A stretch of DNA of 64,000 bases from a virus, in IMG/VR virus record IMGVR_UViG_3300025769_000069, one strand, 5' to 3'. Made by a program: the position numbers and the translations under genes. The notes beneath the pieces are model-generated. The model made no database searches. It saw only the letters and a list, made by a program, of their open reading frames with translations, and had not been told where the DNA came from. Positions 9,054-61,483 of the stretch are shown here, in pieces (the first letter of the stretch is position 1; each line of letters opens with the position of its first letter).

Positions 9054-9078
9054 AGGGGCTTTTCAAGCCCCTTTTTTT
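9054..9078 (+). terminator. Rho-independent terminator after gp23
   Basis: AGGGGCT-TTTCA-AGCCCCT followed by a T-run. Confidence 0.85.
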
Positions 9079-9739
9079 ATAAATTTGATGGGCGCTTTGG
9101 TTTTGACAGTGCTTCTTTATTAACGCCTTTAGACGTTTCAATCATTAGTTCTGGCACGTGAGGACGATATCCATATTCATGCGCTGGTTGACAAATCATG
9201 CCATCATCAGTGCATAAACTAAGCCATCCTGTAATAATATATTTTATGGTTGTTTCAGATACTACACCAACGTGAGGATGAGTATACTCGCACGGCCATA
9301 ATACTGTTTTACCTCTTTTTGCTTCTGTAACTAAATCTTGAAAAGGAAAACTTGTTCCACCATCAGGTACGTCATTCAAATAAGTCATAACAGTTACACA
9401 TCTAGATGAATACAATCCATTTCTTTCATAATGAATTTGTTTAAAACCCTGACCCGGCTCATATTTTTGTAAATTTAAAGCTTCTAATACAACTGAATTT
9501 AAATGAAATTCTTGAGCATACTCATAAGTCATGTTTCCTATTTCTTCGATGTATTTTTTATAAACTTTAGTAAAGAGATGACCATTGAAAGGTGCGTCCA
9601 AACTGTCTTTTACTTCAGGTCTAATTTCTTCTCCAGATTCACCTGGTGTTTTCCAGCACACATCACTTTCAAATATTTTTATAGCGTCATCGCATATGGT
9701 TGGATCTTTTAACTGATATTCTCTAATGCAATTTTCCAT
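9077..9739 (-). CDS. 2OG-Fe(II) oxygenase (prolyl-4-hydroxylase-like)
   Basis: LQKYEPGQ..HYE, MTYLNDVPDGGT, HPHVG, KYIITGW. Confidence 0.85.
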   Translation of the reverse strand: MENCIREYQLKDPTICDDAIKIFESDVCWKTPGESGEEIRPEVKDSLDAPFNGHLFTKVYKKYIEEIGNMTYEYAQEFHLNSVVLEALNLQKYEPGQGFKQIHYERNGLYSSRCVTVMTYLNDVPDGGTSFPFQDLVTEAKRGKTVLWPCEYTHPHVGVVSETTIKYIITGWLSLCTDDGMICQPAHEYGYRPHVPELMIETSKGVNKEALSKPKRPSNL

Positions 9740-20974: not shown

Positions 20975-23560
20975 TTGGAATTCTATACATCAGTATATCG
21001 TTACGGTAATTCTATTCTATATCGTGGCTATAGTGCTAACGGTAGTCCTATTCAAAATAAAATTAAATTTGTTCCTACTTTATATCGGGCATCTCAAAAT
21101 AAATCTGAAATTAAGTCTTTGTTTGGTCATAATCTAGTGCCAGTACAAAACATTAATAGTATGCGTGATGCTAAAGAATATGTTGAACAATATAAAGATG
21201 TAAGTGATGTTAGTATTTTTGGTACAACAAATTACATTCATCAGTTTATTACCGAAAAATTTCCAACCAATATTGATTTTAACGTTAAGCATATTAATGT
21301 TATAAACTTTGATATTGAGGTTGCTTCAGATGATGGCTTTCCAACGCCAGAAGAAGCGGCTTATCCAATTATTTCCATTGCACTTAAATCTAGTAAGTCG
21401 TCAGTCTATCAAGTTTGGGGACTAGATGCTTATGATCCGTCTAAGTCTGAAATTGATTTACATGGTGATCAAGTCCAGTATCACTATTGTTCTTCTGAAG
21501 AAGAATTGCTAGCAAAGTTTCTTGGTTATTGGACTAAAAATTATCCTGACGTAATTACTGGTTGGAACTCTCGTTTCTTTGATATTCCATATCTTATAAA
21601 CCGTATTACATTAATTGGTTCTGAAACAGCAGCCAGACGTCTTTCTCCTTGGAACATGGTAAATCCACGTGATGTAAAGAAAATGCAACGAATGCTTCCA
21701 GCATATGAAATTGTTGGTATCCAACAGGCAGACTATCTTGAACTATTTCAAAAGTTTGGTTACTCATATGGCCCACAAGAATCATATAAACTTGACCATA
21801 TAGGCTATGTAGTAGTTGGAGAAAAAAAGCTATCATATGAAGAACATGGTAATCTATATACGTTATATAAAGAAGACCATCAAAAGTTTATTGATTATAA
21901 CATTAAAGATGTTCAACTAGTAGATCGCATTGATCAAAAGATGGGCCTGATTTCTTTGGCTTTAACTATGGCATACAAAGGCGGTGTAAATCTTGGTGAT
22001 ACATTTGGTACTACTAATATTTGGGAATCAATTATCTATCGTCGATTATTAAGTAAAAATATTATTTGTCCAGTTGAGCAAATCAAAAAGGTTCCATATT
22101 CTATTGTTGGTGCTACAGAAACTTCTATTAGACACCCTGGCCCTAGGGCAAGAGATAAGGACCAACCCCATACTATTGCAGGCGGTTATGTAAAAGAGCC
22201 ACAAGTTGGATCTCACAACTGGGTAGTATCATTTGACCTTAATTCTCTATATCCTAATATTATTGTTCAACAAAACATTTCGCCTGAAACACTTATTAAA
22301 GATTACACTATACGCTTTCCACAAGGCGTAGATTATTATCTTTTCAACCATGATCGTACAAAGCAAGTTAGTGATACCTATGCTCTCGCCTCATCTGGTG
22401 TACCCTATGACCGGACAAAACAGGGTATTATTCCCGAATTGATTGTTGATTACTATGCTGAGCGTAAAGCCATTAAACGTCAAATGCTTGATGCGCAATC
22501 TGCATATGAGAAAACAAAAGATAAATCTCTTCTTTCTAAGATTAACCAAGCTGAAAACAATCAGATGGCCATTAAAATCTTGCTTAACTCTTTATATGGC
22601 GCTCTTGCTAATAAGTACTTTAAATATTTTGATAATGCACTGGCAGAATCTGTTACACTTACTGGCCAGACTGTTATCAAGTGGGCCGAGCAATGTATGA
22701 ACAAAGCCATGAACGATATTACAAAAGCCGATAAAGATTATATTGTTGCTATTGATACCGATTCGATCTATGTCAATATGGGTCCTCTTGTTGAAAAGTT
22801 TAAACCAAAAGATCCTGTTAAGTTTTTAGATAAAATATGTAAAGATCATTTTGAAAAAATTATGGCAAAATCATATGATGAGTTTTTCTTTATCATGAAT
22901 GGCTATACTCCTCGTATGGAAATGGCTCGAGAAGTTATTGCTGATCGTGGCATATGGACAGCAAAGAAACGCTATATTCTTAATGTGCACAATTCAGAGG
23001 GTGTACAATATGCTGAACCAAAACTCAAGATGATGGGTATTGAAGCTATTAAATCTTCAACACCCGAAGTGGTTCGTAATAAATTCAAAGAAGTCTTTAA
23101 AGTAATCATAAATAGCTCTGAATCTGAAACTCAATCTTTCATTGCTGACTTCAAACGACAATTCAATAGCTTACCGCCTGAAGATGTGGCATTTCCTCGT
23201 GGAGTATCTGAAGTTGAAAAATGGAAAGATCGTAGAACAATATATGCAAAAGGCACACCAATTCACGTAAGAGGATCACTACTATATAATAATAAGTTGA
23301 ATGATCTAAATCTTACTAAACGATATGAAACAATCAAGAATGGCGAGAAGATTAAGTTCTTATATTTAAAAAAACCAAACCCTATCAAAGAAAATGTTAT
23401 TTCATTTCCAGGGATCTTGCCTAAAGAATTTGGTGTACATCAGCATGTAGATTATGGTATAATGTTTGAGAAGACATTTATTGAGCCATTGAAACCAATC
23501 CTTGACGCTATGGATTGGACACACGAACCAATGGCTACACTGGAGGATTTCTTTGCATAA
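20975..23560 (+). CDS. gp43: Family B DNA polymerase
   Basis: DIEV exonuclease [24 protein letters not shown]; TTG start after GGAGG. Confidence 0.97.
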
Positions 23561-24492
23561 TGTATTCTTTGACTGTATTTACTAGTAGATTTGATAATAA
23601 AACAGATAAGCGATTTGACTTTGAAACATGGGATAAGTTTTCAAGGTTTTTGTATAAACTATCTGAGCGACCATTAGGAGGTAAGACTGATGCAGAACTT
23701 ATATCACCGGCTGTTTATAACATTGGCACAACTAGGGCAAACAAGAATGTATTGGCTTGGGCAGGTTGGTGTGCTGTTGACGTTGATGATTGGACACCTG
23801 AAGGAGATCTAAATGATACCCTTATCAATAAGTTTGGTCTATGGGACTTCATTTGCTATAGTACTGCTTCTAGTTTGGAAGAACTACCCAAGTTCCGGCT
23901 TGTATTTAGACTTGATAGAAATATACACCAAGATGAAATCAAGCATTTTTGGTGGGCACTCAACACTGAACTTGACAGCATCGGAGATCGCCAAACTAAA
24001 GACCTCAGCAGAATGTATTATGTCCCTGCGAATTACAGTGGTGCTTTTAACTTTATTTTCAGCAATTCTGGTGTTCCTATTGATGTGGACGAGTTACTTG
24101 CTCGACATAGATACGATGATAAAAGAGATTCCGGAAATTTTCTCGACCGTCTCCCAGACGAATGGCGAAAGCAAATAATTGAACATCGTAAAAGCTCACT
24201 AGAAAATACAGACTATAGCTGGTCTAGTTATCATGATTGTCCATTTTGGCCAAAGAGTCTAGCATCAGATTATATGACGATAAATAAGACGGGCTGGTAT
24301 CATAAAATGTATCAAATTATGATTGCTGTTGCTGGTCGAGCTGTAGAAAAAGGTTATCCAATTACAGCTAAAGAAATTGAAGACTTATGCCGTGCTTTTG
24401 ATAATGACACTGGCCGTTGGTATGAAAATCGTGCTATTGAAAAAGAAGCAAACAATGCTTTAGAATATGTGTATAGAAATGGAGTTTTTTAA
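23560..24492 (+). CDS. AEP-type primase / prim-pol-like protein
   Basis: AVDVDD, YSTAS, KFRLVF, KDLSRMYYVP; helical C-terminal domain; TAATG-coupled to gp43. Confidence 0.65.
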   Translation: MYSLTVFTSRFDNKTDKRFDFETWDKFSRFLYKLSERPLGGKTDAELISPAVYNIGTTRANKNVLAWAGWCAVDVDDWTPEGDLNDTLINKFGLWDFICYSTASSLEELPKFRLVFRLDRNIHQDEIKHFWWALNTELDSIGDRQTKDLSRMYYVPANYSGAFNFIFSNSGVPIDVDELLARHRYDDKRDSGNFLDRLPDEWRKQIIEHRKSSLENTDYSWSSYHDCPFWPKSLASDYMTINKTGWYHKMYQIMIAVAGRAVEKGYPITAKEIEDLCRAFDNDTGRWYENRAIEKEANNALEYVYRNGVF

Positions 24493-25081: not shown

Positions 25082-25237
25082 ATGTTACCAGATGAAATGG
25101 AAGCTGAGAAGAATAGAAAGATTATCATATCTCAGGCAGAAACTATTGAAATTTTAAAACAGAATGTTCTAGATTTACAAGAGCAATTGAACAATGCATA
25201 TATTCGTATTAGAAAATTAACGGAGAATAAATTATGA
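25082..25237 (+). CDS. Small coiled-coil protein (51 aa, not in ORF track)
   Basis: SD AAGGA; MLPDEMEAEKNRK...LQEQLNNAYIRIRKLTENKL. Confidence 0.55.
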   Translation: MLPDEMEAEKNRKIIISQAETIEILKQNVLDLQEQLNNAYIRIRKLTENKL

Positions 25238-25632
25238 AAGCAGGTAAAGTGTGGGGAACAACTGAATTAATTGAAGCAAATTGCGCTTTAGAATTTCATC
25301 GTATTGAAATGGAAGCAGGTGGGGTATGCTCTAAGCATATGCATCGTTATAAATGGAATGGATTCTATGTAGAGTCTGGACGTATGCTTATTCGTACATG
25401 GCAAAAAGACTATAATCTGGTAGATGTAACCGAACTTCAAATAGGTGAATATCATAAAGTAAAACCAGGTTTGTACCATCAATTTGAATGTATCGAATCA
25501 GGTGTTGCATATGAACTATATTGGGCTGAGTTTAATCATAATGATATTGTAAGAGAGACTGTAGGACATATGGGTAATATAAAACCTGAACCCAACATCC
25601 CAATAGCACCATATGATATTGGACATCAATAA
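25234..25632 (+). CDS. Cupin (sugar-phosphate isomerase-like)
   Basis: KVWG, CSKHMH..K...FYVESG, PGLYHQF. Confidence 0.75.
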   Translation: MKAGKVWGTTELIEANCALEFHRIEMEAGGVCSKHMHRYKWNGFYVESGRMLIRTWQKDYNLVDVTELQIGEYHKVKPGLYHQFECIESGVAYELYWAEFNHNDIVRETVGHMGNIKPEPNIPIAPYDIGHQ

Positions 25633-25634
25633 CC

Positions 25635-26339
25635 ATGCATTATATTTTCGATGTAGATGGCACATTAACTCCATCTAGACAATTAATGAATAAACATTTT
25701 GAAAAGTGGTTTGAAAACTTTTCAGCACACCATAATGTGTATCTTGTAACTGGATCTGACCGTGATAAAACTTTGGCTCAAGTGGGAGATGTTATTTACA
25801 ATCTAGCTAAAACAGTATATAATTGTTCTGGTAATGATGTTTGGAAACAAGATAAAAATATTAGATCAAATTACTTTCAATTGCCAGATAATGTAAAAAA
25901 AGATCTAACAATAGAAGCGAATGATTCCAGATTTCATGCAAAGAATGGTGACCATTTTGATGAACGTCCGGGGTTAGTCAACTTTAGCGTTGTAGGAAGA
26001 AACTGTAGTCTTGAAAATAGATTTCTATATGTGCAATGGGATGAGCATAAAAATGAAAGAGAAATCATAGCTGAAAAAATGAGAGAGAAATATCCCGATC
26101 TTAATTTTCAAGTGGCAGGAGAAACTGGAATTGATATTACTCTAAAGGGTTTAGACAAATCTCAAATTTTAAAAGATTTTATCACTCACGATGGGGCTAT
26201 ATACTTCTTTGGAGATAAGATGGAATATGGCGGAAATGATTATGAACTCGGCTTGGCAGTCGCTAGATCTGGAAACCATGTCCATCAGGTTAAAGATTGG
26301 AGACATACATGGAAAATTCTAAAAGAATTATCGGCTTAA
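25635..26339 (+). CDS. HAD-IIB phosphomannomutase-like protein
   Basis: FDVDGTLT, VTGSD, NFSVVGR, FFGDK..GGND. Confidence 0.85.
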   Translation: MHYIFDVDGTLTPSRQLMNKHFEKWFENFSAHHNVYLVTGSDRDKTLAQVGDVIYNLAKTVYNCSGNDVWKQDKNIRSNYFQLPDNVKKDLTIEANDSRFHAKNGDHFDERPGLVNFSVVGRNCSLENRFLYVQWDEHKNEREIIAEKMREKYPDLNFQVAGETGIDITLKGLDKSQILKDFITHDGAIYFFGDKMEYGGNDYELGLAVARSGNHVHQVKDWRHTWKILKELSA

Positions 26340-26743
26340 CTGCTTCCACATTTGATTTGTTACACGCTGGCCATTGCGCAATGCTTCGTGAAGCAAAAGA
26401 TCATTGTGATTATTTGATTTGTGCTTTACAGGTAGATCCATCTATAGATAGAGCAGAAAAAAATGCACCCGTTCAAACATTGGTTGAGCGTTGGCTGCAA
26501 TTGCAAAGTGTAAAATATGTTGATGAAATTATTCCATATCAAACTGAAGAAGATTTAAAAGATATTTTACAAATGTTTGATTTAGATTTACGTATTATTG
26601 GCCAAGAATATAAGTCAATGAAATTTACTGGACGTGACATTTGTTCACAGCGCAATATTGAAATTTATTACAACAAAAGAGATCATAGATTTTCTACATC
26701 TGATCTACGTAAACGCGTTTTTGAAACGGAGAAAACAAAATGA
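26309..26743 (+). CDS. TagD-like cytidylyltransferase
   Basis: STFDLLHAGH, YVDEIIPY, RFSTS. Confidence 0.85.
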   Translation: MENSKRIIGLTASTFDLLHAGHCAMLREAKDHCDYLICALQVDPSIDRAEKNAPVQTLVERWLQLQSVKYVDEIIPYQTEEDLKDILQMFDLDLRIIGQEYKSMKFTGRDICSQRNIEIYYNKRDHRFSTSDLRKRVFETEKTK

Positions 26744-27546
26744 ATATTTTAATCGTTGGTCATGGTTTTGTAGGACAAGCTGTGGATTATGGTTTCCAAC
26801 ATCCGGACATTGAAAAGACTATTATTGATCCAAAATATGGAACAACAATAGATGAAATTGACCAAACAAAATATAGTGCAGCTTTTGTTTGTGTACCTAC
26901 ACCAATGGGCGATGATGGTCGTGTAAATTATTCTATAGTAAGAGATGTTGTTAATAAATTAAAAGATAAAATGGTTGTTATTATCAAATCAACTATTACG
27001 CCAGATTTTTTTGATTTATATGCTGACGCAAATCACATTGTTTATAATCCAGAATTTTTAACTGAAAAATCTGCAAAAGAAGATTTTGTAAATCCTCCTT
27101 TCCATATCTTAGGTGGTTCAGAGTTTTCTATTGATTATGTAGAAAAACTATATGATAATTATAGTCTGTGTAATCCGTGTCCAGTATTCAAAGTAAGCCA
27201 TAAAGAAGCAAGTTTAATTAAATATGGTATCAATAATTTCTTATCTATGAAAGTTACATTTTTCAATCAACTGTACGACTTGGCTCAAAAAGAGGGTGTA
27301 AACTTTAATAAAATTTCTCGTGTAATTGGGTCAGATCCTCGCATTGGTCAATCACACACTAAAGTTCCAGGGTTTGATGGTAAACAAGGTTATGGTGGAG
27401 CATGTTTCCCAAAAGATACTTCAGCACTATTTAATTATGATAAGGGGTTTACAATCATTGGAGAATGTATTAGAATTAATAATGGATACAGATCTCAATA
27501 TGATTTAGATGAAAGAGAAAGAGAGCAGAATGTTAAGTTTTCTTAG
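26740..27546 (+). CDS. UDP-glucose/GDP-mannose 6-dehydrogenase family, short form
   Basis: GHGFVG, CVPTP, KST, NPEFL, DPRIG, GYGGACFPKD; usual C-terminal domain absent. Confidence 0.88.
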   Translation: MNILIVGHGFVGQAVDYGFQHPDIEKTIIDPKYGTTIDEIDQTKYSAAFVCVPTPMGDDGRVNYSIVRDVVNKLKDKMVVIIKSTITPDFFDLYADANHIVYNPEFLTEKSAKEDFVNPPFHILGGSEFSIDYVEKLYDNYSLCNPCPVFKVSHKEASLIKYGINNFLSMKVTFFNQLYDLAQKEGVNFNKISRVIGSDPRIGQSHTKVPGFDGKQGYGGACFPKDTSALFNYDKGFTIIGECIRINNGYRSQYDLDEREREQNVKFS

Positions 27547-28369
27547 TAAGAAACCTAAAACCGAAAATATTCGTTGGGGTTGGGATCATCAATGGGATCC
27601 TGCAGTGGATCTGATGATGCCACAAGGAGGTAGTGGTACGTCTCTACAACTAGACGACTTTTTGGATGTTAAACCAATTCCAAAATGGTTTAAAAACATG
27701 CCAACTCTTGTGGATGAAGTGCGCCATCATCCTGGCAATAATTCAAATGAAAAACTTATGAATTGGTTTTATCAACCCAATAATTGGAACGCATTATTCG
27801 ACAAGAGACTAGATCAACATACAACTTTCCGTACAATGAAAGGATGCCCTGCTGTATTAAATCAATTTACTCATAGTGTTTTAATTAAAACTCCTAGTGA
27901 TTTGTTTATTGAAGTTCACGAAAAATATGGACCAAGATTTAAATCGCATTTAGATTGTATGTCTTTCACAGGTCATGCTCCAAACCAAACTGAAGGGAGC
28001 CCACTGGATAAAAATTTTTGGATTATAAAAGCACATACACCACTAATTTTTTCTTCAGAAGTTGGCAATCGCGTTTTCTATCAAGATTGTTTATGGGAAA
28101 AAATATATGATTTTAGAATTGTTCCAGGTCACATTGGAATCAAGACAAAAGAAATAGTTCCAATAACATTCTTTATGGCTTTCCCAAGAAATCTACCTAC
28201 TGCTAAATATGTTTTAAAACGTGGCGAGCCATTAGCTTATATTACTTTTATGAATAAATTTAAAAAATTTATTTATGACGAATCGCTATTTAAAAAACAT
28301 AGAAGAGATCAATATCAAAGGCATTTTTCTTATTTCGAAAAGCCCAAAATATCATATGAGGAAAACTAA
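27530..28369 (+). CDS. Hypothetical protein
   Basis: Long ORF; PKWFKNMP, TMKGCPA, LKRGEPLAY. Confidence 0.6.
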   Translation: MLSFLSKKPKTENIRWGWDHQWDPAVDLMMPQGGSGTSLQLDDFLDVKPIPKWFKNMPTLVDEVRHHPGNNSNEKLMNWFYQPNNWNALFDKRLDQHTTFRTMKGCPAVLNQFTHSVLIKTPSDLFIEVHEKYGPRFKSHLDCMSFTGHAPNQTEGSPLDKNFWIIKAHTPLIFSSEVGNRVFYQDCLWEKIYDFRIVPGHIGIKTKEIVPITFFMAFPRNLPTAKYVLKRGEPLAYITFMNKFKKFIYDESLFKKHRRDQYQRHFSYFEKPKISYEEN

Positions 28370-31232: not shown

Positions 31233-31349
31233 ATGGCTAAAGGTTTTACTAATGCAAAGAAGACGTCCATTGGTCGTCGTAATATCAAAACATCATCTAT
31301 GAACAAAGGTAAAAAACGTTCATTTAAAAAATATCGAGGTCAAGGTTAA
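31233..31349 (+). CDS. 38-aa basic peptide (not in ORF track)
   Basis: SD GGAG; MAKGFTNAKKTSIGRRNIKTSSMNKGKKRSFKKYRGQG; coupled to thyX. Confidence 0.65.
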   Translation: MAKGFTNAKKTSIGRRNIKTSSMNKGKKRSFKKYRGQG

Positions 31350-32029
31350 TGCATGCAAAGCTCATTTCCTATAGCCAACCCGGCGGTCGTATCCACGCAG
31401 GCGAACCAGCTTACAGGGGATTGGATAACATCCAAGACCTCATTGCCTATTGCGCCCGTGTCTCCAATCCATCCAACCAAGCTAACACCAAAACAACGGC
31501 AAAGTTACTTGACTATCTCATCAAGCACAAACACTGGTCACCATTCGAAATGGCAAGCGCCTGCATCGAAGTCGAAACCACCAGAGACATTGCAAGACAA
31601 CTCCTCCGCCACCGTTCCTTTAGTTTCCAAGAGTTTTCTCAGCGGTATGCTGACATCCGCGATCTTAATGATAATTTTGTAATTCGTGATGCACGTCTTC
31701 AAGACACTAAGAATCGACAAAATAGTATTGATACTACAGACGTTGAATTGCAACAACAATGGGAAGGTTATCAAAAAGGAGTTATCAATGCAGCAAAACA
31801 AGCATATGAATGGGCAATCGAAAATGGAATTGCCAAAGAACAAGCAAGAGTCGTTCTTCCAGAAGGTAACACGGTATCTCGTCTCTATGTTAATGGTACT
31901 ATTCGCTCCTGGATACATTATGTCGAGCTACGTTCGGCAAATGGAACCCAAAAAGAGCATATGGAACTGGCGAGGGCGATAGCAGAAGCTATAAGTAAGA
32001 TATATCCAAAGATAAATATATTTTTATAA
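31349..32029 (+). CDS. thyX: Flavin-dependent thymidylate synthase
   Basis: HWSPFE, RHRSFSFQEFSQRY, EQARVVLP. Confidence 0.95.
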   Translation: MHAKLISYSQPGGRIHAGEPAYRGLDNIQDLIAYCARVSNPSNQANTKTTAKLLDYLIKHKHWSPFEMASACIEVETTRDIARQLLRHRSFSFQEFSQRYADIRDLNDNFVIRDARLQDTKNRQNSIDTTDVELQQQWEGYQKGVINAAKQAYEWAIENGIAKEQARVVLPEGNTVSRLYVNGTIRSWIHYVELRSANGTQKEHMELARAIAEAISKIYPKINIFL

Positions 32030-32590: not shown

Positions 32591-32635
32591 ATTATGGGTT
32601 GGTGGAAACAAAAAGATTTAATGAGGAAAAAATAT

Positions 32636-33088
32636 ATGTCTGAGAATTGGGTTGCAGATATCAACAAAATGCACGACAAGTTTGGTGTGCATAAATGGTT
32701 TGAAGAAAACAAAGATAACAAAGATCTGATGCGTAAGTATCTGATGTTTCGTTTGTTGATGTGTCAGGAGGAGTTAAGTGAAACACTCGCTGCTTATAAT
32801 AATGGAGATGCTGAAGAAGTTGTTGATGGTCTCATTGATCTTTGCGTTTTTGCTATTGGCACTCTCGACGTATTTGGTGTTGATGCTTGGGACGCTTGGA
32901 ATCGTGTCCATAGTGCTAATATGGCAAAAGAGCCAGGAGTTAAGCCGGGACGTCCTAATCCGTTTGGGCTACCGGATCTACTGAAGCCGGGTGGTTGGAT
33001 TGGTCCAAACCACGAAGGTAATCACGGTAATCTTAATGCAGCTATTGACGATCGTCCAGAACCAAATATTGATCGTAATGCTTGGTAA
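32636..33088 (+). CDS. MazG-like / all-alpha NTP pyrophosphohydrolase
   Basis: QEELSE, EEVVDGLIDL, VHSANMAK, DLLKP. Confidence 0.8.
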   Translation: MSENWVADINKMHDKFGVHKWFEENKDNKDLMRKYLMFRLLMCQEELSETLAAYNNGDAEEVVDGLIDLCVFAIGTLDVFGVDAWDAWNRVHSANMAKEPGVKPGRPNPFGLPDLLKPGGWIGPNHEGNHGNLNAAIDDRPEPNIDRNAW

Positions 33089-33540: not shown

Positions 33541-33822
33541 ATGGCTTATGTTACTTACAAAAATCGCTCATCATCAGACTATCGTTTTACTTGTAAATCT
33601 CTTGATGATCCTGAGATTGCAAATCTTAAAGAAATACTTGTCAACCGCAACAGTTTCATTAAACATGCCCGCAAACAAATGGGTATGATGAGTTTTTACG
33701 GTCAACAAAAAACACAAGGCCTTCGTATCCGTCCTCGTGGCCCTCGTCCGTCTCAGTGGGCAAAAGATACACCTTGGGAAAATGCAACTCATTATGATGT
33801 TTACATACGGGAGTATATGTGA
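33541..33822 (+). CDS. Early hypothetical protein
   Basis: RIRPRGPR, ATHYDVY. Confidence 0.65.
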   Translation: MAYVTYKNRSSSDYRFTCKSLDDPEIANLKEILVNRNSFIKHARKQMGMMSFYGQQKTQGLRIRPRGPRPSQWAKDTPWENATHYDVYIREYM

Positions 33823-33852
33823 TAGAATACTATTATCCACAACAATTGAGGT

Positions 33853-34206
33853 ATGATTATGCGTGAATCGCTAAAAGTATTACAAGAATGTGCTGAACTC
33901 CAGCAACAAAAATCGCGTGACTATCAAAATGATAAATCACGTATTGTTCAAGCTGATTACTATCCACGTGGTGTAGCTTCAATTATGGATATTATCCATG
34001 CTAAAACTCTTCGACTTTGGTCAGTACTTGAAGCTATGGAAAATGATCCTGAATATAAACCAAACTTTGAGTCTATGGAAGACTCATTCAAAGATCTAAT
34101 CAACTATTCTAGTTTTGGCGTAGCATTCTGTCGTGGTAAAATTCCAGGTCAACGTACTGATCGTGACTTTCTAAATCGTGAGATCCGTAATAATGAAACT
34201 GAATAA
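33853..34206 (+). CDS. Nucleotide-modification-associated helical protein (DUF1599-like)
   Basis: KSRDY, K..RL, EDSFKDLINY; adjacent to the hydroxymethylase. Confidence 0.65.
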   Translation: MIMRESLKVLQECAELQQQKSRDYQNDKSRIVQADYYPRGVASIMDIIHAKTLRLWSVLEAMENDPEYKPNFESMEDSFKDLINYSSFGVAFCRGKIPGQRTDRDFLNREIRNNETE

Positions 34207-34888
34207 TGTAAACGATATCCGCCAATTCTTTATTGATGAACTTAAAGATGAAGCTTACACCATTGATAAAACTGGTCAAAAGACTATTGAATTAATTGGT
34301 GCTCAGTTTGTTGCAGATGAACCATCAATATTTGGTGTACCTAACCAAGAATACATTGATGCTGAACTGGCTTGGTATGAAAGCCAATCAACTAACATTT
34401 ATGATATTAATGGTAAAATAAAAGCACCACCTGCTGCATGGAAATATACAGCTAATACTCATGGTGAAATCAATTCTAATTATGGCCATTTGATTTTTTC
34501 TGATAAGTATTACAATCAGTACGGTATGGTTCTAGATGAGCTACAGACTCATCCAGATGGCCGTAGAGCCACTATAGTATACAATAGGCCGTCTATTTGG
34601 ATAGAATTTTGTGAAAATGGCAAGAATGACTTTATTTGCACAAATGCAGTAACTTATTATATTCGAGATAATTTATTACATTCCGTAGTCCAAATGCGTT
34701 CCAATGATGTCATCTATGGATACAAGAACGATTTTGCGTGGCAGCTTTATGTAATGAAAAAATTAGTAAGTGATTTTAATAGTATCGCTAGAATGACCGG
34801 CGATCATGCTGAAATAGAACTTGGCCATATCATCTGGCAAGTTCAAAACTTACACGTATATGAAAGGCATTTTCACCTTGTCAAATAA
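34193..34888 (+). CDS. gp42: dCMP hydroxymethylase (thymidylate synthase fold)
   Basis: DFICTN, MRSNDVIYGYKNDFAW closely matches T4 gp42 MRSNDVVFGFRNDYAW, including the dCMP-specifying Asp; NLHVY. Confidence 0.85.
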   Translation: MKLNNVNDIRQFFIDELKDEAYTIDKTGQKTIELIGAQFVADEPSIFGVPNQEYIDAELAWYESQSTNIYDINGKIKAPPAAWKYTANTHGEINSNYGHLIFSDKYYNQYGMVLDELQTHPDGRRATIVYNRPSIWIEFCENGKNDFICTNAVTYYIRDNLLHSVVQMRSNDVIYGYKNDFAWQLYVMKKLVSDFNSIARMTGDHAEIELGHIIWQVQNLHVYERHFHLVK

Positions 34889-35339
34889 ATGGGATAAACG
34901 TTATCTTAACCTTGCTAGAGAAATCAGCACGTGGTCTAAAGATCCATCATCTAAAATTGGAGCTGTAGCAATTGGCTCCAAAGGTCAAGTACTCGCTCAA
35001 GGATATAATGGTTTGCCTCGAGGCATCTTTGATGGAGAGTCTAGGCTTAGAGATAAAGAAGTAAAATATCAGTATGTTGTTCATGCTGAAATGAATTTAA
35101 TTTATAATGCTACGTATAATGGCGTCTCATTAGATGGTTCGACTTTATACGTATGGGGATTGCCGATTTGTAGTGAGTGCGCAAAAGGCGTGATCCAAGT
35201 TGGGATTTCTAGAGTAGTTATGCCAGATCATGATTTTCCAAAAAAATGGAAAAGTTCTTGGGAGATATCCCGTGTTCTATTTAACGAAGCAGGAATAAAA
35301 TATGACTTTGTTGATATGTGGTCTAAGTCCATCGAATAA
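34878..35339 (+). CDS. cd: dCMP deaminase
   Basis: WSKDPS, GYNG, HAEMN, PICSEC; start position uncertain. Confidence 0.9.
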   Translation: MSNKWDKRYLNLAREISTWSKDPSSKIGAVAIGSKGQVLAQGYNGLPRGIFDGESRLRDKEVKYQYVVHAEMNLIYNATYNGVSLDGSTLYVWGLPICSECAKGVIQVGISRVVMPDHDFPKKWKSSWEISRVLFNEAGIKYDFVDMWSKSIE

Positions 35340-35646
35340 GTTCACACCAAAATTAAATGAAGTTCCATCCTTTAAAAAACTAAACAAATGGATGGATTAT
35401 TTTGGATATAAGTACTATTCATTCACCAACATAAAACCTGATGGAAAAAATGTGTACATTGATGCAATAATAGATTATAATCTTATTATAGCATTGGGCA
35501 ATGAAGCTTCAACTATCTTGAAAAAATTTGGTATTGAACATTTTTCTTTACCACATCCATCGCCCTTAAATAGAAAACTAAATGATAATGATTATGAAAT
35601 GCAATGTTTAAAAGAGTGTAAAGAATGGCTAAGAAAAAAATTTTAG
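35302..35646 (+). CDS. Minimal uracil-DNA-glycosylase-fold protein
   Basis: GLSPS, FTN, IIALGNEA, LPHPSPLNR. Confidence 0.65.
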   Translation: MTLLICGLSPSNKFTPKLNEVPSFKKLNKWMDYFGYKYYSFTNIKPDGKNVYIDAIIDYNLIIALGNEASTILKKFGIEHFSLPHPSPLNRKLNDNDYEMQCLKECKEWLRKKF

Positions 35647-36734
35647 TAACTGGATTTAATCACGAGCAAACAAGATACGACGGTTATTTAAGAAAACGAG
35701 TTGGTGTTATTCTTTGTCACTATGGACTTGTTCGTTGTCTTGAAGATATGGACTTTGAACTTACTCAAACATACACTGAGCCAGGAACAGATATTTCTGA
35801 ATACGATCATGTGATTGTTTTTCTACATAATCCACAAGGATTTTGTCAACGCTTATTTGATGGTCTTTGGGCCCTATCTCAAAGACCAGATGCTATTGTT
35901 GCCTTTGATGACTGGCAAGTAAAAGACATATATAATGGTATCATCCAGTATGGTAAAACTTTACGTGAACGTCCTGAGTCAGCATATCGTGGTCATATTT
36001 TAGATCAGTATCATACAATTAAAGATGAGGCAAAAGTAAAATCATTCAATCAAGCATATCTCGATGCAATTGATATGTTAGAGGAAAAAAAGAATAAAGT
36101 TTTACTTTGTACGTTTAGTGGCGGTGATGTAGAAAAATTTGGATTAGACTGGAATAAAGATTTACTATATACTTTTAATCCTAATCCATATCACTTAAGC
36201 AGATCATATAAAAACAATTATGGTATTGAAGAAAGCAATGATTTAACTTCTTTCTTTGATGATTCTCCTGTTGGTCCAAATAAAGAAACAAAAGAAAAAG
36301 TTTGGATATTTAGTTCTCTAGTTCAAACAAAAACTCGTAAGTGGTTAACAAAACTAGATACGCAGTGGGATGTTAGAATTTATGGTGCGCAGCGGGGTGC
36401 TTATAAGTCTGAACGTTTAACCGAAGATAAGATGGTTCAGGAATATGAAAGTGTATGGGGTAATTTGATGCCAGCATATGATAACATTGGTTCTGGTTGG
36501 TGGAGAACTCGAGTGTTGCAGTGTGCTGAAGCATTCTGTATTACATATTGCGATTATAATGAGGGAATCATCTATGGTGAAGAATATTGTAATTTTACTC
36601 CAGCAGATCTAGAACAAATGGATAAAGAACAACTGTGGAATAAAGCGATTGCTCAGTACGAATGCTTACTAGATAATCACCCACTAAATAAAGATGTAAC
36701 AAAGAAAGAATTATTGGAGGTCCTTCATGGCTAA
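35625..36734 (+). CDS. Putative DNA glycosyltransferase (GT-B-like)
   Basis: 369 aa; DDWQ, GSGWWRTR; sits between hydroxymethylase and NDP-sugar epimerases (mostly a context call). Confidence 0.55.
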   Translation: MAKKKILVTGFNHEQTRYDGYLRKRVGVILCHYGLVRCLEDMDFELTQTYTEPGTDISEYDHVIVFLHNPQGFCQRLFDGLWALSQRPDAIVAFDDWQVKDIYNGIIQYGKTLRERPESAYRGHILDQYHTIKDEAKVKSFNQAYLDAIDMLEEKKNKVLLCTFSGGDVEKFGLDWNKDLLYTFNPNPYHLSRSYKNNYGIEESNDLTSFFDDSPVGPNKETKEKVWIFSSLVQTKTRKWLTKLDTQWDVRIYGAQRGAYKSERLTEDKMVQEYESVWGNLMPAYDNIGSGWWRTRVLQCAEAFCITYCDYNEGIIYGEEYCNFTPADLEQMDKEQLWNKAIAQYECLLDNHPLNKDVTKKELLEVLHG

Positions 36735-37683
36735 GGTGTTAATTACTGGTGGAGCTGGTTTTATTGGTTTTCATTTGGCGCAGTCAATGCAAGATGATGG
36801 ATGGGATGTAGCCTGTCTAGATGATTTTAATGGATTTTATTATGATCCGAATATGAAAGCTGATCGTTCAGAAATCCTAGCAGAACGTGGAATTAAAACA
36901 TGGGCAGTTGATATTAAAGAAAAATCAAAGCTTGTCAACGCGTTGGATGCTGAGAAACCGGATGTTGTAATGCATCTTGCTGCTCACGCCGGCGTGCGTC
37001 ACTCTCTGGACTATTCTAGACAGTATATTGACAACAATATCTATGGTACGCAAAACTTAATTGAAGCATGTGAAATTGTTGGAGTTGATAATGTAGTATA
37101 TGCTTCGACTTCATGTGTTATGGCTGGCAATCAACTACCTTGGAAAGAAGATGATCCAACAAGACATCAACTCAATCCATATGGCTATACCAAAATGACA
37201 AATGAATGTCAGATGATGGTATCAAAAATCAACAATACAATTGGTCTTCGTTTCTTTACAGTCTATGGACCTTGGGGTCGACCAGACATGGCATTGTTTA
37301 AATTCACAAAAGGTATCCTTGATGGATCAAAAATTGATGTCTTTAATTATGGTGATATGAAACGAGACTTTACGTATGTAGATGATATTGTTGCTGGGAT
37401 TAAAGTTCTGATTCAACGCACTATGGATAGTGACGGTTTAAAGGAAATCTATAATATTGGAAGAGGCGAACAAGTTCAGCTTATGGATTTCATTACTGAA
37501 ATTGAAAAGAATTTTGGTCGCAAGGCTGAGAAAAATTTGTTACCAAAACATCCAGCTGATACTCAAGAAACATGGTCAGACACAACTAAACTCCGGTCTT
37601 TAGGTTGGAAACCTACTACTTCAATCTCTGAAGGCATTGAAAAATTTGCTGAATGGTATAAGTCATATTATGGAGTAAATTGA
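36727..37683 (+). CDS. NAD-dependent epimerase (UDP-glucuronate 4-epimerase-like)
   Basis: GGAGFIG, HLAAHAGVRHS, YGYTK, FTVYGPWGRPDMA, RDFTYVDD. Confidence 0.9.
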   Translation: MAKVLITGGAGFIGFHLAQSMQDDGWDVACLDDFNGFYYDPNMKADRSEILAERGIKTWAVDIKEKSKLVNALDAEKPDVVMHLAAHAGVRHSLDYSRQYIDNNIYGTQNLIEACEIVGVDNVVYASTSCVMAGNQLPWKEDDPTRHQLNPYGYTKMTNECQMMVSKINNTIGLRFFTVYGPWGRPDMALFKFTKGILDGSKIDVFNYGDMKRDFTYVDDIVAGIKVLIQRTMDSDGLKEIYNIGRGEQVQLMDFITEIEKNFGRKAEKNLLPKHPADTQETWSDTTKLRSLGWKPTTSISEGIEKFAEWYKSYYGVN

Positions 37684-37714
37684 ATAAATAGATAAAAATA
37701 TTTAGAGGTACCTC

Positions 37715-38683
37715 ATGGCAAAAATTCTAATTACGGGCGGCGTAGGTTTTATTGGTTATCATTTAGCTCTGGCATTAAATAGTGATGGCCATCAAATTTG
37801 GCTTTTGGATAATTTTAATTTATGGGATTCTGTCAAAGGAATAAAAAGAGATAGAAAAAATTTGTTAACAGAGGTCGATGGAATTGACTTTATGCGTATG
37901 GACATTAGAAGTCAAGATGAAATTTGGCCGTGGTTCGAAGCACATCAATTTGATACCGCTGTTCACTTAGCTGGCCATGGGATGATAAGAACATCTGCAG
38001 AAGCTGGGAATAAACTTCCGTACGTTATGACTGGAATAGCAGGAGTAACTGAATTAATTGAAATGTTTGAAAGATTTGGTGTTAACAATGTTTTCTATGC
38101 ATCTACTGGTGAAGTTGGTCAGGGTAACGCTTTACCTTGGTCAGAATCCGTTCCAATTCAACCAGCATTGAATCATTATACTTTAAGTAAAATTGCAAAT
38201 GAAATGCAGTTTAATATGTCAGATATTCAAAAAACTGTTGGATTGAGACTATTTAATACATATGGTCCATATGGTAGAATTGATATGGCCCCAACTAAAT
38301 TTGCAACATGTTTACAAGACAATCTTCCTATTCAAGTGCACAACGAAGGAAATATGTCTAGAGATTGGATATATATTGATGATGCTATAAATGGTATTAA
38401 AACTATTATGAATCATACTTGGAATACTGATGGTCAAGTACGAGAAATATATAATATTGGTTCTGGAACAAAGACAAGTCTAAATGATTTTATAACTAAA
38501 TTAGAAACGGCTTATGGAGTAACAGGCACTAAAGAATTAGTGGATATGGCTTCAGGTGAAGTTCAAGATACACAAGCAGACATTACAAAATTACAAGCGC
38601 TTGGCTGGTCTCCTACTACATCATTAGATGATGGACTAACAAGTTTTGTAACGTGGTTTAAAACTTACTATGGAGTTAGTTAA
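37715..38683 (+). CDS. Second, divergent NAD-dependent epimerase paralog
   Basis: GGVGFIG, YTLSK, NTYGPYGRIDMA, RDWIYIDD. Confidence 0.85.
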   Translation: MAKILITGGVGFIGYHLALALNSDGHQIWLLDNFNLWDSVKGIKRDRKNLLTEVDGIDFMRMDIRSQDEIWPWFEAHQFDTAVHLAGHGMIRTSAEAGNKLPYVMTGIAGVTELIEMFERFGVNNVFYASTGEVGQGNALPWSESVPIQPALNHYTLSKIANEMQFNMSDIQKTVGLRLFNTYGPYGRIDMAPTKFATCLQDNLPIQVHNEGNMSRDWIYIDDAINGIKTIMNHTWNTDGQVREIYNIGSGTKTSLNDFITKLETAYGVTGTKELVDMASGEVQDTQADITKLQALGWSPTTSLDDGLTSFVTWFKTYYGVS

Positions 38684-38685
38684 AT

Positions 38686-39060
38686 ATGATAGTTGACGTT
38701 GAATTGAATTTTTTACATAAATTTTTTGATGAAGTAGAAGAATATGCGCAGATAGATCGCGACATGCTGCATTGCAAAATGTGGGACGGCGCGCCCTGGC
38801 CGTGTCAGCCTGGAGATCAAAGACTTTATCTTTTTAATCACAGAGGACATAAGTCTTTAGCACTTCAAAGTGATATTGAAATAATAGGTAAATGGTTAGA
38901 AGAAATAAATCCAAACACACTAACTTTTTTATCTTTTCCTTGGCACGAGGATAAGGAAGGGGTTGAACCTAATACATGGCCATGTATTCTTCATGTACAT
39001 TATGATAGATGCCATGAGGGTGTTGTTCCAAACCCGCACTGGAATGAACCCAACTACTAG
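38686..39060 (+). CDS. Hypothetical protein
   Basis: ORF within the modification cluster. Confidence 0.5.
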   Translation: MIVDVELNFLHKFFDEVEEYAQIDRDMLHCKMWDGAPWPCQPGDQRLYLFNHRGHKSLALQSDIEIIGKWLEEINPNTLTFLSFPWHEDKEGVEPNTWPCILHVHYDRCHEGVVPNPHWNEPNY

Positions 39061-39068
39061 TTGACAGC

Positions 39069-40256
39069 ATGATTTATTCTAGTATTGTTCCGTTAATTGG
39101 CGGTGAAACAATTGCAATGGAAAAAGTCTTTGGAAAAAGACCTGAGTACATTCTTTCATATTCAGACTTTACAGCTAATGATAGCCAGCTTCTTCACTAT
39201 TACAATCATTCTGTTCCTTATCTTCTTCTCGATAAAGGTGGCCTTGCTCCTAGTCAGGTTGATGTGGTCAATACTGTCTGTCCTTGTGCAGGTCTTAGTT
39301 CCCTTAGCCCTTCTAGCAGTGGTGATAGTACTACTAATGATTGGATGGTCAAGTCTGCAGAGTATGTGCTCGAATCAGTCCAACCAACTGTGTTCTGGGG
39401 TGAAAACGCTCCACGTCTCGCTAGTAAAATGGGAGCACCAGTTGTCGCAAAGTTACGAAAACTTGCAAAGAAATATGGATACACATTCTCCATCTACAAA
39501 ACAAAATCAATCCTCCACGGACTAAGTCAAATAAGAGATCGTACTTTCTATTTCTTTTGGAAAGGCAATCATGTTCCAATTTTTAAATACTACAATAGAC
39601 CATATACAACTATTGAAGATCAAATCAGATCATCTGCAACAAATGAACTTGATCCAATGTTTGAACAAGTAAATAATAAAGGGAAACCTTCTGAAGATCC
39701 AATGTATAGATTTGTTCTAGAAGAAATTGAAGGTGGTATGTCTCATTTTGATTATGTAAAGAAAACAAAGAAAACTCATAATCCGTATGATGCTATTGAA
39801 AGAGCTCAGATTAAATATTCTACTGTTGCAGAATGGATGAAATCTGAAGGATATGATCGTGTTGGAGAACGAATGATGCGCATTAATGAAAAGCTTGAAT
39901 CAGGCGGAAACATTATGCGTAAAGGTGTTGAGATTGGAAAAGATTACATTGGCGCATTTGTTGGACATAATCCAACTAGCTTAGTACATCCTGATGAAGA
40001 CAGATTTATTAATACTCGCGAAGCTTTAGACATAATGAAAATGCCAAAAGACTTTATGTTACAAGGTGGGATTAAGAATTTAAATATGATTTGCCAGAAT
40101 GTTCCCGTTACGACAGCAATGGATATGGCAGAGAATGTAAAAGATTTTCTTGGAGGATCTATTCAAACAATTGAAGCTGATTATATTCTTCAAGATAATA
40201 AAACACAAACTTACAACGTCGAAAGAGTTATGAATACTCTAGAAGCTTTTATCTAA
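39069..40256 (+). CDS. C5-cytosine DNA methyltransferase-like protein
   Basis: PC motif IV (CPCAGLS), ENA motif VI, QxRxR motif VIII, RFINTRE motif IX; motif I atypical (IVPLIGG). Confidence 0.8.
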   Translation: MIYSSIVPLIGGETIAMEKVFGKRPEYILSYSDFTANDSQLLHYYNHSVPYLLLDKGGLAPSQVDVVNTVCPCAGLSSLSPSSSGDSTTNDWMVKSAEYVLESVQPTVFWGENAPRLASKMGAPVVAKLRKLAKKYGYTFSIYKTKSILHGLSQIRDRTFYFFWKGNHVPIFKYYNRPYTTIEDQIRSSATNELDPMFEQVNNKGKPSEDPMYRFVLEEIEGGMSHFDYVKKTKKTHNPYDAIERAQIKYSTVAEWMKSEGYDRVGERMMRINEKLESGGNIMRKGVEIGKDYIGAFVGHNPTSLVHPDEDRFINTREALDIMKMPKDFMLQGGIKNLNMICQNVPVTTAMDMAENVKDFLGGSIQTIEADYILQDNKTQTYNVERVMNTLEAFI

Positions 40257-42387: not shown

Positions 42388-42474
42388 GATCAATAATAAA
42401 ACAAAATTCATTGCTTATGACGGCAATAAACGTGTAATAATTATGTCACGCAGTAGGAAAATCGTCGTGGGGTA

Positions 42475-42503
42475 TTTACAATCTTTGGGATATGTGATAT
42501 AAG
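42475..42503 (+). promoter_or_regulatory. Promoter for tmRNA
   Basis: TTTACA-N17-TATAAG. Confidence 0.55.
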
Positions 42504-42508
42504 TATAC

Positions 42509-42750
42509 TCGTAGATGTTAGAGGGTATTCAGGACCGCGGGGCGGTACCGCGCAGCTCCACCAAATTTACTCTCTAGAGTAAAAAATGATAATTTACTTT
42601 GTAGAGTAAATTTGATGGGGCTGAAATAGGATCGACTGGTATTTGAGTCTACGAAACACAACTGCAAACGATAACTTTGCACCTTCTGGTTTTGCTCTAG
42701 CAGCATAATTAAGGGAGCTGGCCACTTGCTTAGCAACAGAAAAGTGGCAC
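42509..42750 (+). ncRNA. ssrA: Permuted two-piece tmRNA (alphaproteobacterial type)
   Basis: Acceptor piece ends CAGCTCCACCA (42563) with T-loop GGCGGTA; intervening segment; coding piece starts GGGGCTGAAATAGGATCGAC (42617); G3:U70 pair; tag ANDNFAPSGFALAA* at 42664-42708. Confidence 0.93.
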
Positions 42751-42788
42751 CATTTATAATGTTTTAACTCAATCTAGGAAAAAGTAAA

Positions 42789-61401: not shown

Positions 61402-61483
61402 TACTACCAGAAAATAATGCTACTAATATGCGCAAACAAATTTTGTGCATGTTATTTTTTACACATTTAAAGAGGTTCTCTCC

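Follow-up and report, generated by a model that had tools for sequence, protein, structure and literature searches.

A T-even-type DNA hypermodification operon with a predicted new transferase family and a predicted uronate epimerase in a T4-like phage

The T4 system for glucosylating 5-hydroxymethylcytosine (hmC) comprises the dCMP hydroxymethylase gp42, the dCTPase gp56, the deaminase Cd and the α- and β-glucosyltransferases (AGT and BGT). A different base is found in RB69, DLP3 and the Rhizobium phage RL38J1, which make 5-hydroxycytosine (5hoC), in glycosylated form, and not hmC by means of a flavin-using thymidylate synthase (TS) homolog; in these phages the TS homolog lies beside a GT-B 'transferase 1' and phage sugar-nucleotide genes, including in RL38J1 a UDP-galactopyranose mutase (PMC13326640, 2026). 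For phage DNA that bears a glucuronic acid moiety we found a single precedent, Bacillus phage SP-15 (PMC5977210), but there it is a glucuronolactone phosphate on dihydroxypentyl-uracil, not O-glycosidic on hmC, and the genes are unrelated to those described below; full-text literature searches turned up no uronic acid attached to hmC. Here we describe an operon at positions 33853–40256 (plus strand) of the IMG/VR virus record IMGVR_UViG_3300025769_000069, analysed as a stretch of 64,000 nucleotides that we refer to as the window. We interpret the operon as encoding a T-even type of DNA hypermodification with new parts. It is very likely, in our view, that hmC synthesis is combined here with a DNA-type transferase belonging to a new family, and the best single reading of the sugar placed on hmC, on balance a probable one, is a uronic acid, either galacturonic (GalA) or glucuronic (GlcA).

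The operon consists of nine co-directional, overlapping or abutting open reading frames (ORFs); a promoter-like site (33800–33828) precedes them and a convergent gene lies beyond 40256. A preliminary description of this DNA had proposed a cytosine hypermodification cluster at this position. The ORFs that it named are all present on the plus strand and arranged as one operon, and the cluster as a whole is confirmed, its gene order recurring in 84 related loci, more than expected by chance. Its list lacked one ORF, of 124 residues (38686–39060, plus strand), which lies between the second of two epimerase-like genes and a methyltransferase-like gene.

In common with T4, the operon has a gp42 homolog with the same active-site signature, a dCMP deaminase and a GT-B transferase, predicted to act after replication, whose best structural match is T4 BGT. 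It differs from T4 in that this transferase has no detectable sequence-family tie to BGT or AGT (~12% identity, no Pfam family) and in that the operon carries its own predicted uronate 4-epimerase with a paralog, a gene for a mini-uracil-DNA-glycosylase-like protein (mini-UDG) and a C5-methyltransferase-fold gene which T4 lacks, with a dehydrogenase encoded elsewhere; the predicted sugar is acidic, whereas that of T4 is glucose. The 5hoC systems resemble the locus in their gene neighbourhood but differ in the residue at position 169 of ThyA (Asn there, Asp in the window) and in using an arabinose pathway in place of a dehydrogenase and a uronate epimerase.

The identity of the modified base is indicated by the second gene of the operon (34178–34888, plus strand, or possibly from the ATG at 34193), which encodes a dCMP hydroxymethylase of the T4 gp42 type. 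The protein matches the structure of the T4 enzyme (PDB entry 1b49) with E = 2.7e-69 over residues 10–235 and contains the motifs DFICTN, in which the catalytic cysteine is kept, and MRSNDVIYGYKND. It reads MRSND...GYKND, with Asp at the positions of L143, D169 and N177 of ThyA, as in T4 gp42. An Asp at ThyA N177 marks dCMP specificity, an acidic residue at L143 is expected of a 5-hydroxymethyl-dCMP synthase, and the diagnostic 5hoC change is an Asn at position 169 of Escherichia coli ThyA (PMC13326640). The 5hoC synthase of RB69, gp48, is 25% identical to the window enzyme and reads MRSQN, with Asn at the D169 position. Since the window enzyme has Asp at 169, 177 and 143, like T4 gp42, and not the 5hoC Asn, the base that it makes is predicted to be hmC. 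The same hmC signature is common to all 66 of 66 TS homologs that adjoin relatives of the transferase described next, and the Asp at the D169 position, in the window enzyme and in these 66, rules out the RB69 gp48-type chemistry. The earlier assignment of a gp42-like hydroxymethylase with an Asp specificity residue is thus strongly supported.

The gene at 35625–36734 (plus strand) encodes a protein of 369 residues, previously described as a putative transferase, which belongs to an unnamed family (phrog_14998). It has no match in Pfam (E up to 10) or in NCBIfam, and full-text searches of the literature found no description of the family. An AlphaFold2 model, based on an alignment of 33 homologs, was obtained with a predicted local distance difference score (pLDDT) of 92.4 and a predicted template-modelling score (pTM) of 0.89, and consists of the two Rossmann-like domains of a GT-B fold. 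In an exhaustive structural comparison with ~48,000 representative chains (VIA), the top match was T4 BGT (Z = 17.1, r.m.s. deviation 3.5 Å over 286 residues, 12% identity). T4 AGT followed at Z = 15.3 and the DNA glycosyltransferase of phage HY126 at Z = 13.9, and dozens of GT-B enzymes matched residues 1–369 with Z between 12 and 16. Foldseek matches included SenB and, again, T4 BGT. The proposed transferase therefore stands as a GT-B enzyme in the predicted structure, and the fold and synteny together point to an hmC-DNA glycosyltransferase. Similarity to T4 BGT or to RB69 gp46/47 was not found at the level of sequence; homology to the two RB69 proteins was dropped, the hhalign probability being less than 1%.

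A profile search among 1.84 billion cluster representatives recovered 618 members of the transferase family with E ≤ 1e-3, of which 144 reach E ≤ 1e-30; some members are fused within proteins of 800–1400 residues. Among cultured phages, weak homologs (24–29% identity) are encoded by phage C48C1 and by T4-like phages that infect Aeromonas, Stenotrophomonas, Erwinia, Providencia and Morganella, and three actinobacterial phages give partial matches; almost all of these proteins carry a hypothetical annotation.

The proteins of the window were mapped onto 84 related loci that carry relatives of the transferase (80 from IMG/VR and four from assemblies). Many of these loci end at contig ends, and all of the counts given for them are lower bounds. 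The recurring module runs from the DUF1599 gene (52 of 84 loci) through the hydroxymethylase or TS homolog (68), the dCMP deaminase (64) and the mini-UDG (29) to the transferase, which is followed by one or more sugar genes and by the methyltransferase-like gene (65 of 84); a MazG-like gene lies upstream of the module in 34. Comparative genomics establishes that transferase and hydroxymethylase are linked. In the loci that were read the TS homolog is immediately upstream of the transferase, and the transferase adjoins a gp42-type gene even in very divergent loci, including a jumbo-phage contig of 304 kb. In one locus (L027) a 200-residue ORF with a weak match to group I intron endonucleases (4683–5285, plus strand; E = 2e-4) lies between the hydroxymethylase and deaminase genes.

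The sugar genes around the transferase swap like cassettes. A UDP-galactopyranose mutase (TIGR00031, 290 bits) follows the transferase in 59 loci, and a GalE-like epimerase (TIGR01179, 231 bits) often comes before the mutase; together the two would form a coherent route from UDP-glucose through UDP-galactopyranose to UDP-galactofuranose; on this basis, galactofuranosyl-hmC is predicted in many aquatic T4-like phages. These mutase-type (GLF-type) loci include L019, L025–L034 and L037–L075 and others from IMG/VR, and the mutase was previously known only beside the 5hoC system of RL38J1. The other cassette comprises a dehydrogenase and a uronate epimerase. In L009–L016, with transferases 71–72% identical to that of the window, the order is transferase, epimerase (57–62% identical to the first epimerase of the window), short dehydrogenase (52–54%) and methyltransferase-like gene. 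In two others (L007 and L008; transferase 82% identical) it is transferase, epimerase, a homolog of the 124-residue protein and methyltransferase-like gene. When 60 distinct transferases are placed in a maximum-likelihood tree, the nine that adjoin an epimerase, with or without a dehydrogenase, form one clade with full branch support (SH-aLRT 100) on a stem of 1.11 changes per site, and the mutase-linked majority falls outside. That the clade tracks the type of sugar gene would be expected had the transferase become adapted to a donor made by the products of the adjacent genes. The clade-specific changes in the transferase include some at otherwise near-invariant positions and form no part of this argument.

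In the window, the gene that begins at the end of the transferase gene (36727–37683, plus strand) encodes a short-chain dehydrogenase/reductase, SDR1, which by sequence is a canonical UDP-GlcA/UDP-GalA 4-epimerase, because it both matches that family and keeps the residues that bind the substrate carboxylate. Its best match is PDB entry 5u4q (E = 3.7e-80), a Klebsiella protein to which it is ~55% identical as judged by eye from the alignment, followed by BcUGAepi, the UDP-glucuronate 4-epimerase of Bacillus cereus (PDB entry 6zl6; E = 3e-49), and MoeE5 (E = 9e-35), whereas matches to GalE-type enzymes are at ~1e-29 or weaker. As counted on the printed alignment, SDR1 keeps Thr126, Ser127, Tyr149, Lys153, Thr178 and Arg185 of BcUGAepi and the motif FTVYGPWGRPDMA, Ser128 being replaced by Cys. 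In BcUGAepi the Thr and Ser residues and Arg185 hold the carboxylates of substrate and product (PMC12338863). SDR1 thus resembles 6zl6, MoeE5 and 5u4q in catalytic and carboxylate residues alike, but it is encoded in a phage DNA-modification operon. A route to UDP-xylose or UDP-arabinose through the dehydrogenase and the two SDR proteins was considered and rejected (E = 1e-80 and 1e-49 for 5u4q against ~1e-19 for UDP-xylose synthase), as was arabinose by an RB69-like route, the RB69 arabinose genes being unrelated to the sugar genes of the window.

The substrate of this epimerase would be supplied by a dehydrogenase that is encoded upstream, at 26740–27546 (plus strand). This short nucleoside-diphosphate-sugar (NDP-sugar) 6-dehydrogenase of 268 residues (TIGR03026, E = 2e-40; PDB entry 4a7p, E = 5e-26) is closest to UDP-glucose dehydrogenases and covers positions 73–295 of the 413 in the TIGR03026 model. 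It has an N-terminal NAD motif, GHGFVG, and the Cys of its GGACFPKD motif aligns with the catalytic Cys of 4a7p. Relatives also have the short form, with 282 residues in L010, where the gene is inside the hmC operon, and 319 in C48C1; we therefore do not regard it as a broken gene. A frameshifted dehydrogenase running on into the ORF at 27509–28369 was likewise rejected, since this 286-residue ORF contains neither a dehydrogenase domain nor the UDP-binding domain and short dehydrogenases (268–319 residues) recur in L010 and C48C1. The short dehydrogenase is a probable supplier of UDP-glucuronate. It was named in the preliminary description together with an upstream MazG-like gene, and both are present; the shortening of the dehydrogenase at its C terminus had not been mentioned there.

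The dehydrogenase gene occupies, with four others, the slot between gp43 and uvsX (25234–28369, plus strand). Ahead of it are genes for a cupin, a phosphomannomutase-like (PMM-like) HAD-IIB protein and an RfaE/TagD-like nucleotidyltransferase (25234–26743, plus strand; Pfam, NCBIfam and PHROG matches), which form a possible cassette for sugar-1-phosphate activation, and after it is an ORF of 286 residues (phrog_7084). In L010 a cupin and the RfaE/TagD-like nucleotidyltransferase are also found inside the hmC operon. The arabinosylation genes of RB69 occupy the same gp43–uvsX slot.

The pathway that we favour would run as follows. The gp42-type enzyme would convert dCMP to 5-hydroxymethyl-dCMP, with nucleotide pools balanced by the dCMP deaminase, the flavin-dependent thymidylate synthase ThyX and, probably, the MazG-like and DUF1599 pyrophosphatases, and hmC would be incorporated at replication. 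After replication, the 369-residue GT-B enzyme would move a sugar from a nucleotide sugar to the hydroxyl of hmC in DNA. The donor would most likely be UDP-galacturonate, or else UDP-glucuronate, made from UDP-glucose by the short dehydrogenase (or the host Ugd) and then by the UDP-glucuronate 4-epimerase encoded right after the transferase, and the product would be an acidic uronosyl-hmC. The preliminary description had already suggested a charged glucuronyl- or galacturonyl-hmC. This interpretation is strengthened by the evidence for hmC synthesis, the DNA-type GT-B fold, the adjoining UDP-glucuronate 4-epimerase and the dehydrogenase in the same operon in L009–L016, while the sugar itself remains a deduction. 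The fullest form of the proposal, in which virion hmC is O-linked to GalA or GlcA, or to a derivative made by the second epimerase-like protein (SDR2), through an unnamed GT-B family with exchangeable cassettes, is put forward more tentatively, as a plausible description that may well need amendment.

Several observations weigh against a uronosyl product. We infer the donor and the final sugar from the genes and not from chemistry, and the DNA acceptor of the transferase likewise from its genomic context, the gp42-type gene alongside. The dehydrogenase lacks a C-terminal UDP-binding domain, the TIGR03026 match stopping at model position 295 of 413, and its substrate is for this reason uncertain. 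The nucleotidyltransferase beside it is RfaE/TagD-like and not a UDP-sugar pyrophosphorylase. The carboxylate site of SDR2 is altered (Gly, Glu and Asn), which could change the product. The epimerase-linked transferases amount to essentially one evolutionary event and not to repeated independent co-variation. Finally, searches of the whole record of phage C48C1 with proteins and Pfam models found no TS-family gene, while a dehydrogenase control matched at 2.8e-78. C48C1 (OQ984149.1, locus L001; complete, 156 kb) has an epimerase and a short dehydrogenase between its primase and UvsX genes, and a 29%-identical homolog of the transferase elsewhere, flanked by hypothetical genes of 336 and 472 residues. 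Uronate sugar genes can therefore exist without hmC.

The strongest of the other explanations, though in our judgement an unlikely one, is that the transferase places glucose, galactose or another neutral sugar of the host on hmC and that the epimerase, the dehydrogenase and the upstream cassette are auxiliary metabolic genes for remodelling the surface polysaccharide of the host or for glycosylating another target. C48C1, with its epimerase and dehydrogenase in the gp43–uvsX slot and no TS-family gene, keeps alive a reading of these genes as lipopolysaccharide-related (LPS-related), which is how a survey of pelagimyophages took rfaE and UDP-glucose dehydrogenase (PMC7029224). A neutral sugar would also suit L018 and L020–L024, in which the transferase is followed by the methyltransferase-like gene with no sugar gene between them. 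It is harder to reconcile with the window, L007 and L009–L016, where the epimerase gene begins inside the transferase gene or directly behind it, as part of a single operon and ahead of the methyltransferase-like gene, or with the transferase clade following the type of sugar gene, a logic which the loci with GalE and the mutase share.

A different product could arise from SDR2, the divergent tandem paralog of SDR1 (37715–38683, plus strand), which is of the same length and 43% identical to it. The NAD motif, the YxxxK motif and Arg185 are intact in SDR2, but Ser127 is replaced by Gly, Ser128 by Glu and Thr178 by Asn. Its best non-self match among 5.8 billion proteins is at 43% identity, and it looks like a lineage-specific, fast-diverging copy of the epimerase. 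The preliminary description had spoken of two glucuronate-epimerase-like SDR proteins. Both are indeed closest to UDP-glucuronate 4-epimerases (5u4q, 6zl6 and MoeE5), but SDR2 is divergent, and to call the pair two glucuronate epimerases overstates the case because three of the carboxylate-holding residues are replaced in SDR2. The 124-residue protein encoded after it is rich in Cys and His and has a 31%-identical homolog in the corresponding position of L007; Pfam and PHROG gave no match to it, and an Atlas search nothing usable. SDR2 and this protein may carry out further tailoring of the sugar.

On this basis the uronic acid could be an intermediate from which SDR2, possibly with the 124-residue protein, makes another donor: a UDP-pentose by decarboxylation, or a 4-keto or reduced derivative. 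We regard this as rather improbable, a shade more so than a neutral sugar. Retention of the NAD and YxxxK motifs beside an altered carboxylate site would fit such a change of function. Mutants of BcUGAepi in carboxylate-handling residues turn into primitive UDP-xylose synthases (PMC12338863), pentosylated cytosines are known in other phages (PMC13326640), and the want of a close SDR2 homolog elsewhere suggests fast, lineage-specific evolution. Set against this, SDR2 keeps Arg185, the loss of which favours decarboxylation, and sequence alone reveals no function for it. Moreover, the closest relatives of the locus, L007 and L009–L016, have no SDR2, which marks it as an add-on.

That the 369-residue protein acts instead on a protein, lipid or small molecule, its nearness to the hydroxymethylase reflecting a shared early-gene neighbourhood, is very improbable: a GT-B fold alone leaves the acceptor open, many non-DNA GT-B enzymes match at Z = 14–16, near the T4 enzymes, and sequence similarity to T4 BGT or RB69 gp46/47 is lacking, but the best of all VIA matches is T4 BGT, the gene lies beside a gp42-type gene in very divergent loci, and an hmC phage without a transferase, though possible, would be unusual among T4-like phages.

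The uronosyl-hmC pathway would share its operon with a further enzyme, encoded by the conserved last gene of the module (39069–40256, plus strand), an obligate-looking partner with a divergent C5-cytosine methyltransferase fold (PF00145, E = 7e-13). Its earlier description as C5-methyltransferase-like is confirmed by an AlphaFold2 model (pLDDT 86.5) that matches C5-methyltransferases over residues 1–364; the VIA matches are CmoX (PDB entry 8yf3) at Z = 21.6, then M.MpeI, M.HhaI (20.6) and M.HaeIII at ~20–21. Most of the C5-methyltransferase motifs can be recognized: the Pro-Cys of motif IV in VCPCAGLS, the Glu-Asn of motif VI in WGENAP, motif VIII as QIRDR and the Asn of motif X in CQNVP, with candidates for motif II (Asp33-Phe34) and motif III (Asp55) also present. 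Motif I reads IVPLIGG where the canonical form is FxGxG, and is conserved in this form. Across homologs of 42–84% identity PLIGG, VCPCAGLS, WGENAP, QxRxRxFYFFW and CQNVP are invariant. The protein looks like an active, sequence-specific enzyme that attacks C6 of cytosine, possibly dependent on S-adenosylmethionine (SAM) despite its odd motif I. Amid cytosines that should already be substituted at C5, one possibility is that it methylates residual or host cytosines, another that it carries out a new reaction on hmC.

CmoX, the C5-carboxymethyltransferase of Synechococcus phage S-B43 (PMC12783734), is the nearest solved relative of this last gene product (E = 8e-5, 21% identity), and both are phage proteins of the C5-methyltransferase fold tied to DNA hypermodification. 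They differ in that CmoX has SPPC and a carboxymethyl-binding Arg350, whereas the window protein has VCPC and, aligned with Arg350, an Asn, as in the SAM-using M.HhaI; a CmoX identity was rejected on these grounds. No CmoA was seen among the annotated genes of the window. The only homologs in cultured phages (27–34% identity) are gp080 of cyanophage S-TIM5 (L087), a protein of the Pseudoalteromonas phage vB_Psh_XG4 (L088) and gp301 of Bacillus phage G; in S-TIM5 the gene is ~2.4 kb from an annotated thymidylate synthase.

The remaining genes of the operon are small. The first (33853–34206, plus strand) encodes a DUF1599-like protein of 117 residues, DUF1599 being a nucleotide-modification-associated domain. 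Its own match to PF07659 (E = 6e-4, 20.5 bits) is weak and below the cut-off of 25, and a PDB sequence search gave matches at the level of chance. The protein also matches phrog_18404 and phrog_1485, and a syntenic homolog in L002 carries PF07659. One half of the phrog_18404 profile matches this protein and the other half the upstream MazG-like protein. The dCMP deaminase (34821–35339, plus strand), also noted previously, is clear (PF00383, E = 1e-16; phrog_174, E = 2e-38). The protein of 114 residues encoded at 35302–35646 (plus strand), with the motifs GLSPS and HPSPLN, had been described as having a UDG fold. Its PF03167 match is weak (19.8 bits; cut-off 24.3) and covers the C-terminal motif alone, but its nearest Atlas clusters, all viral and of 116–124 residues, have PF03167 in 20–70% of their members, and the structure matches with a template-modelling score of 0.86; we refer to it as mini-UDG-like.

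Upstream of the operon are the MazG-like nucleotide pyrophosphohydrolase (32594–33088, plus strand; PF01503, E = 1e-9; phrog_671; weak match to DR2231), a candidate dCTPase, and ThyX (31349–32029, plus strand). A class II (B12-type) ribonucleotide reductase is encoded farther downstream (61445–63712, plus strand) and, with ThyX, adds nucleotide-pool genes alongside the modification pathway. Pfam gives no family for a protein of 325 residues encoded right after the gp43 polymerase (23515–24492, plus strand); its match to phrog_9765, 'DNA primase', has E = 1e-37, and it may be a primase other than gp61. A 2-oxoglutarate-Fe(II) oxygenase gene (9077–9739) is on the minus strand inside the structural module.

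The window as a whole is part of an uncultured marine T4-like myophage of ~35% GC. Its T4-type structural genes include those for terminase, sheath, tube, portal, prohead protease, scaffold and the gp23 capsid protein, and its replication genes those for UvsW, gp46/47, clamp, clamp loader, RegA, gp43 polymerase, UvsX and gp41 helicase. The capsid protein shares 66% identity with its counterpart in phage C48C1 (Kyanoviridae) and 62–64% with the capsid proteins of Methylophilales phage Melnitz and Pelagibacter phage HTVC008M. A permuted transfer-messenger RNA (tmRNA) of the alphaproteobacterial type was found at 42471–42751 (plus strand) with the Rfam models RF01849 (75.1 bits) and RF04321 (90.5 bits), both above their gathering scores, whereas ARAGORN called no tmRNA in the window. 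This supports, short of proof, the earlier suggestion of an alphaproteobacterial host.

The addition of sugars to hmC is a classic way for phages to shield their DNA from restriction enzymes and CRISPR nucleases, and each new sugar has set new patterns of escape from, and sensitivity to, defence systems. If the proposed product is correct, it would be the first acidic sugar reported on cytosine, and a negatively charged sugar on every cytosine would alter the charge density of the DNA, its packaging and its recognition by type IV restriction enzymes and glycosylases. Transferases specific for hmC that use new donors would be useful for hmC labelling and sequencing chemistry. The conserved partner with a C5-methyltransferase fold, in a setting where C5 of cytosine should be occupied, presents a testable puzzle, and activity on C5-blocked DNA would, if true, be new. 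The unnamed transferase family and its exchangeable sugar cassettes suggest a means by which abundant aquatic T4-like phages may diversify the decoration of hmC.

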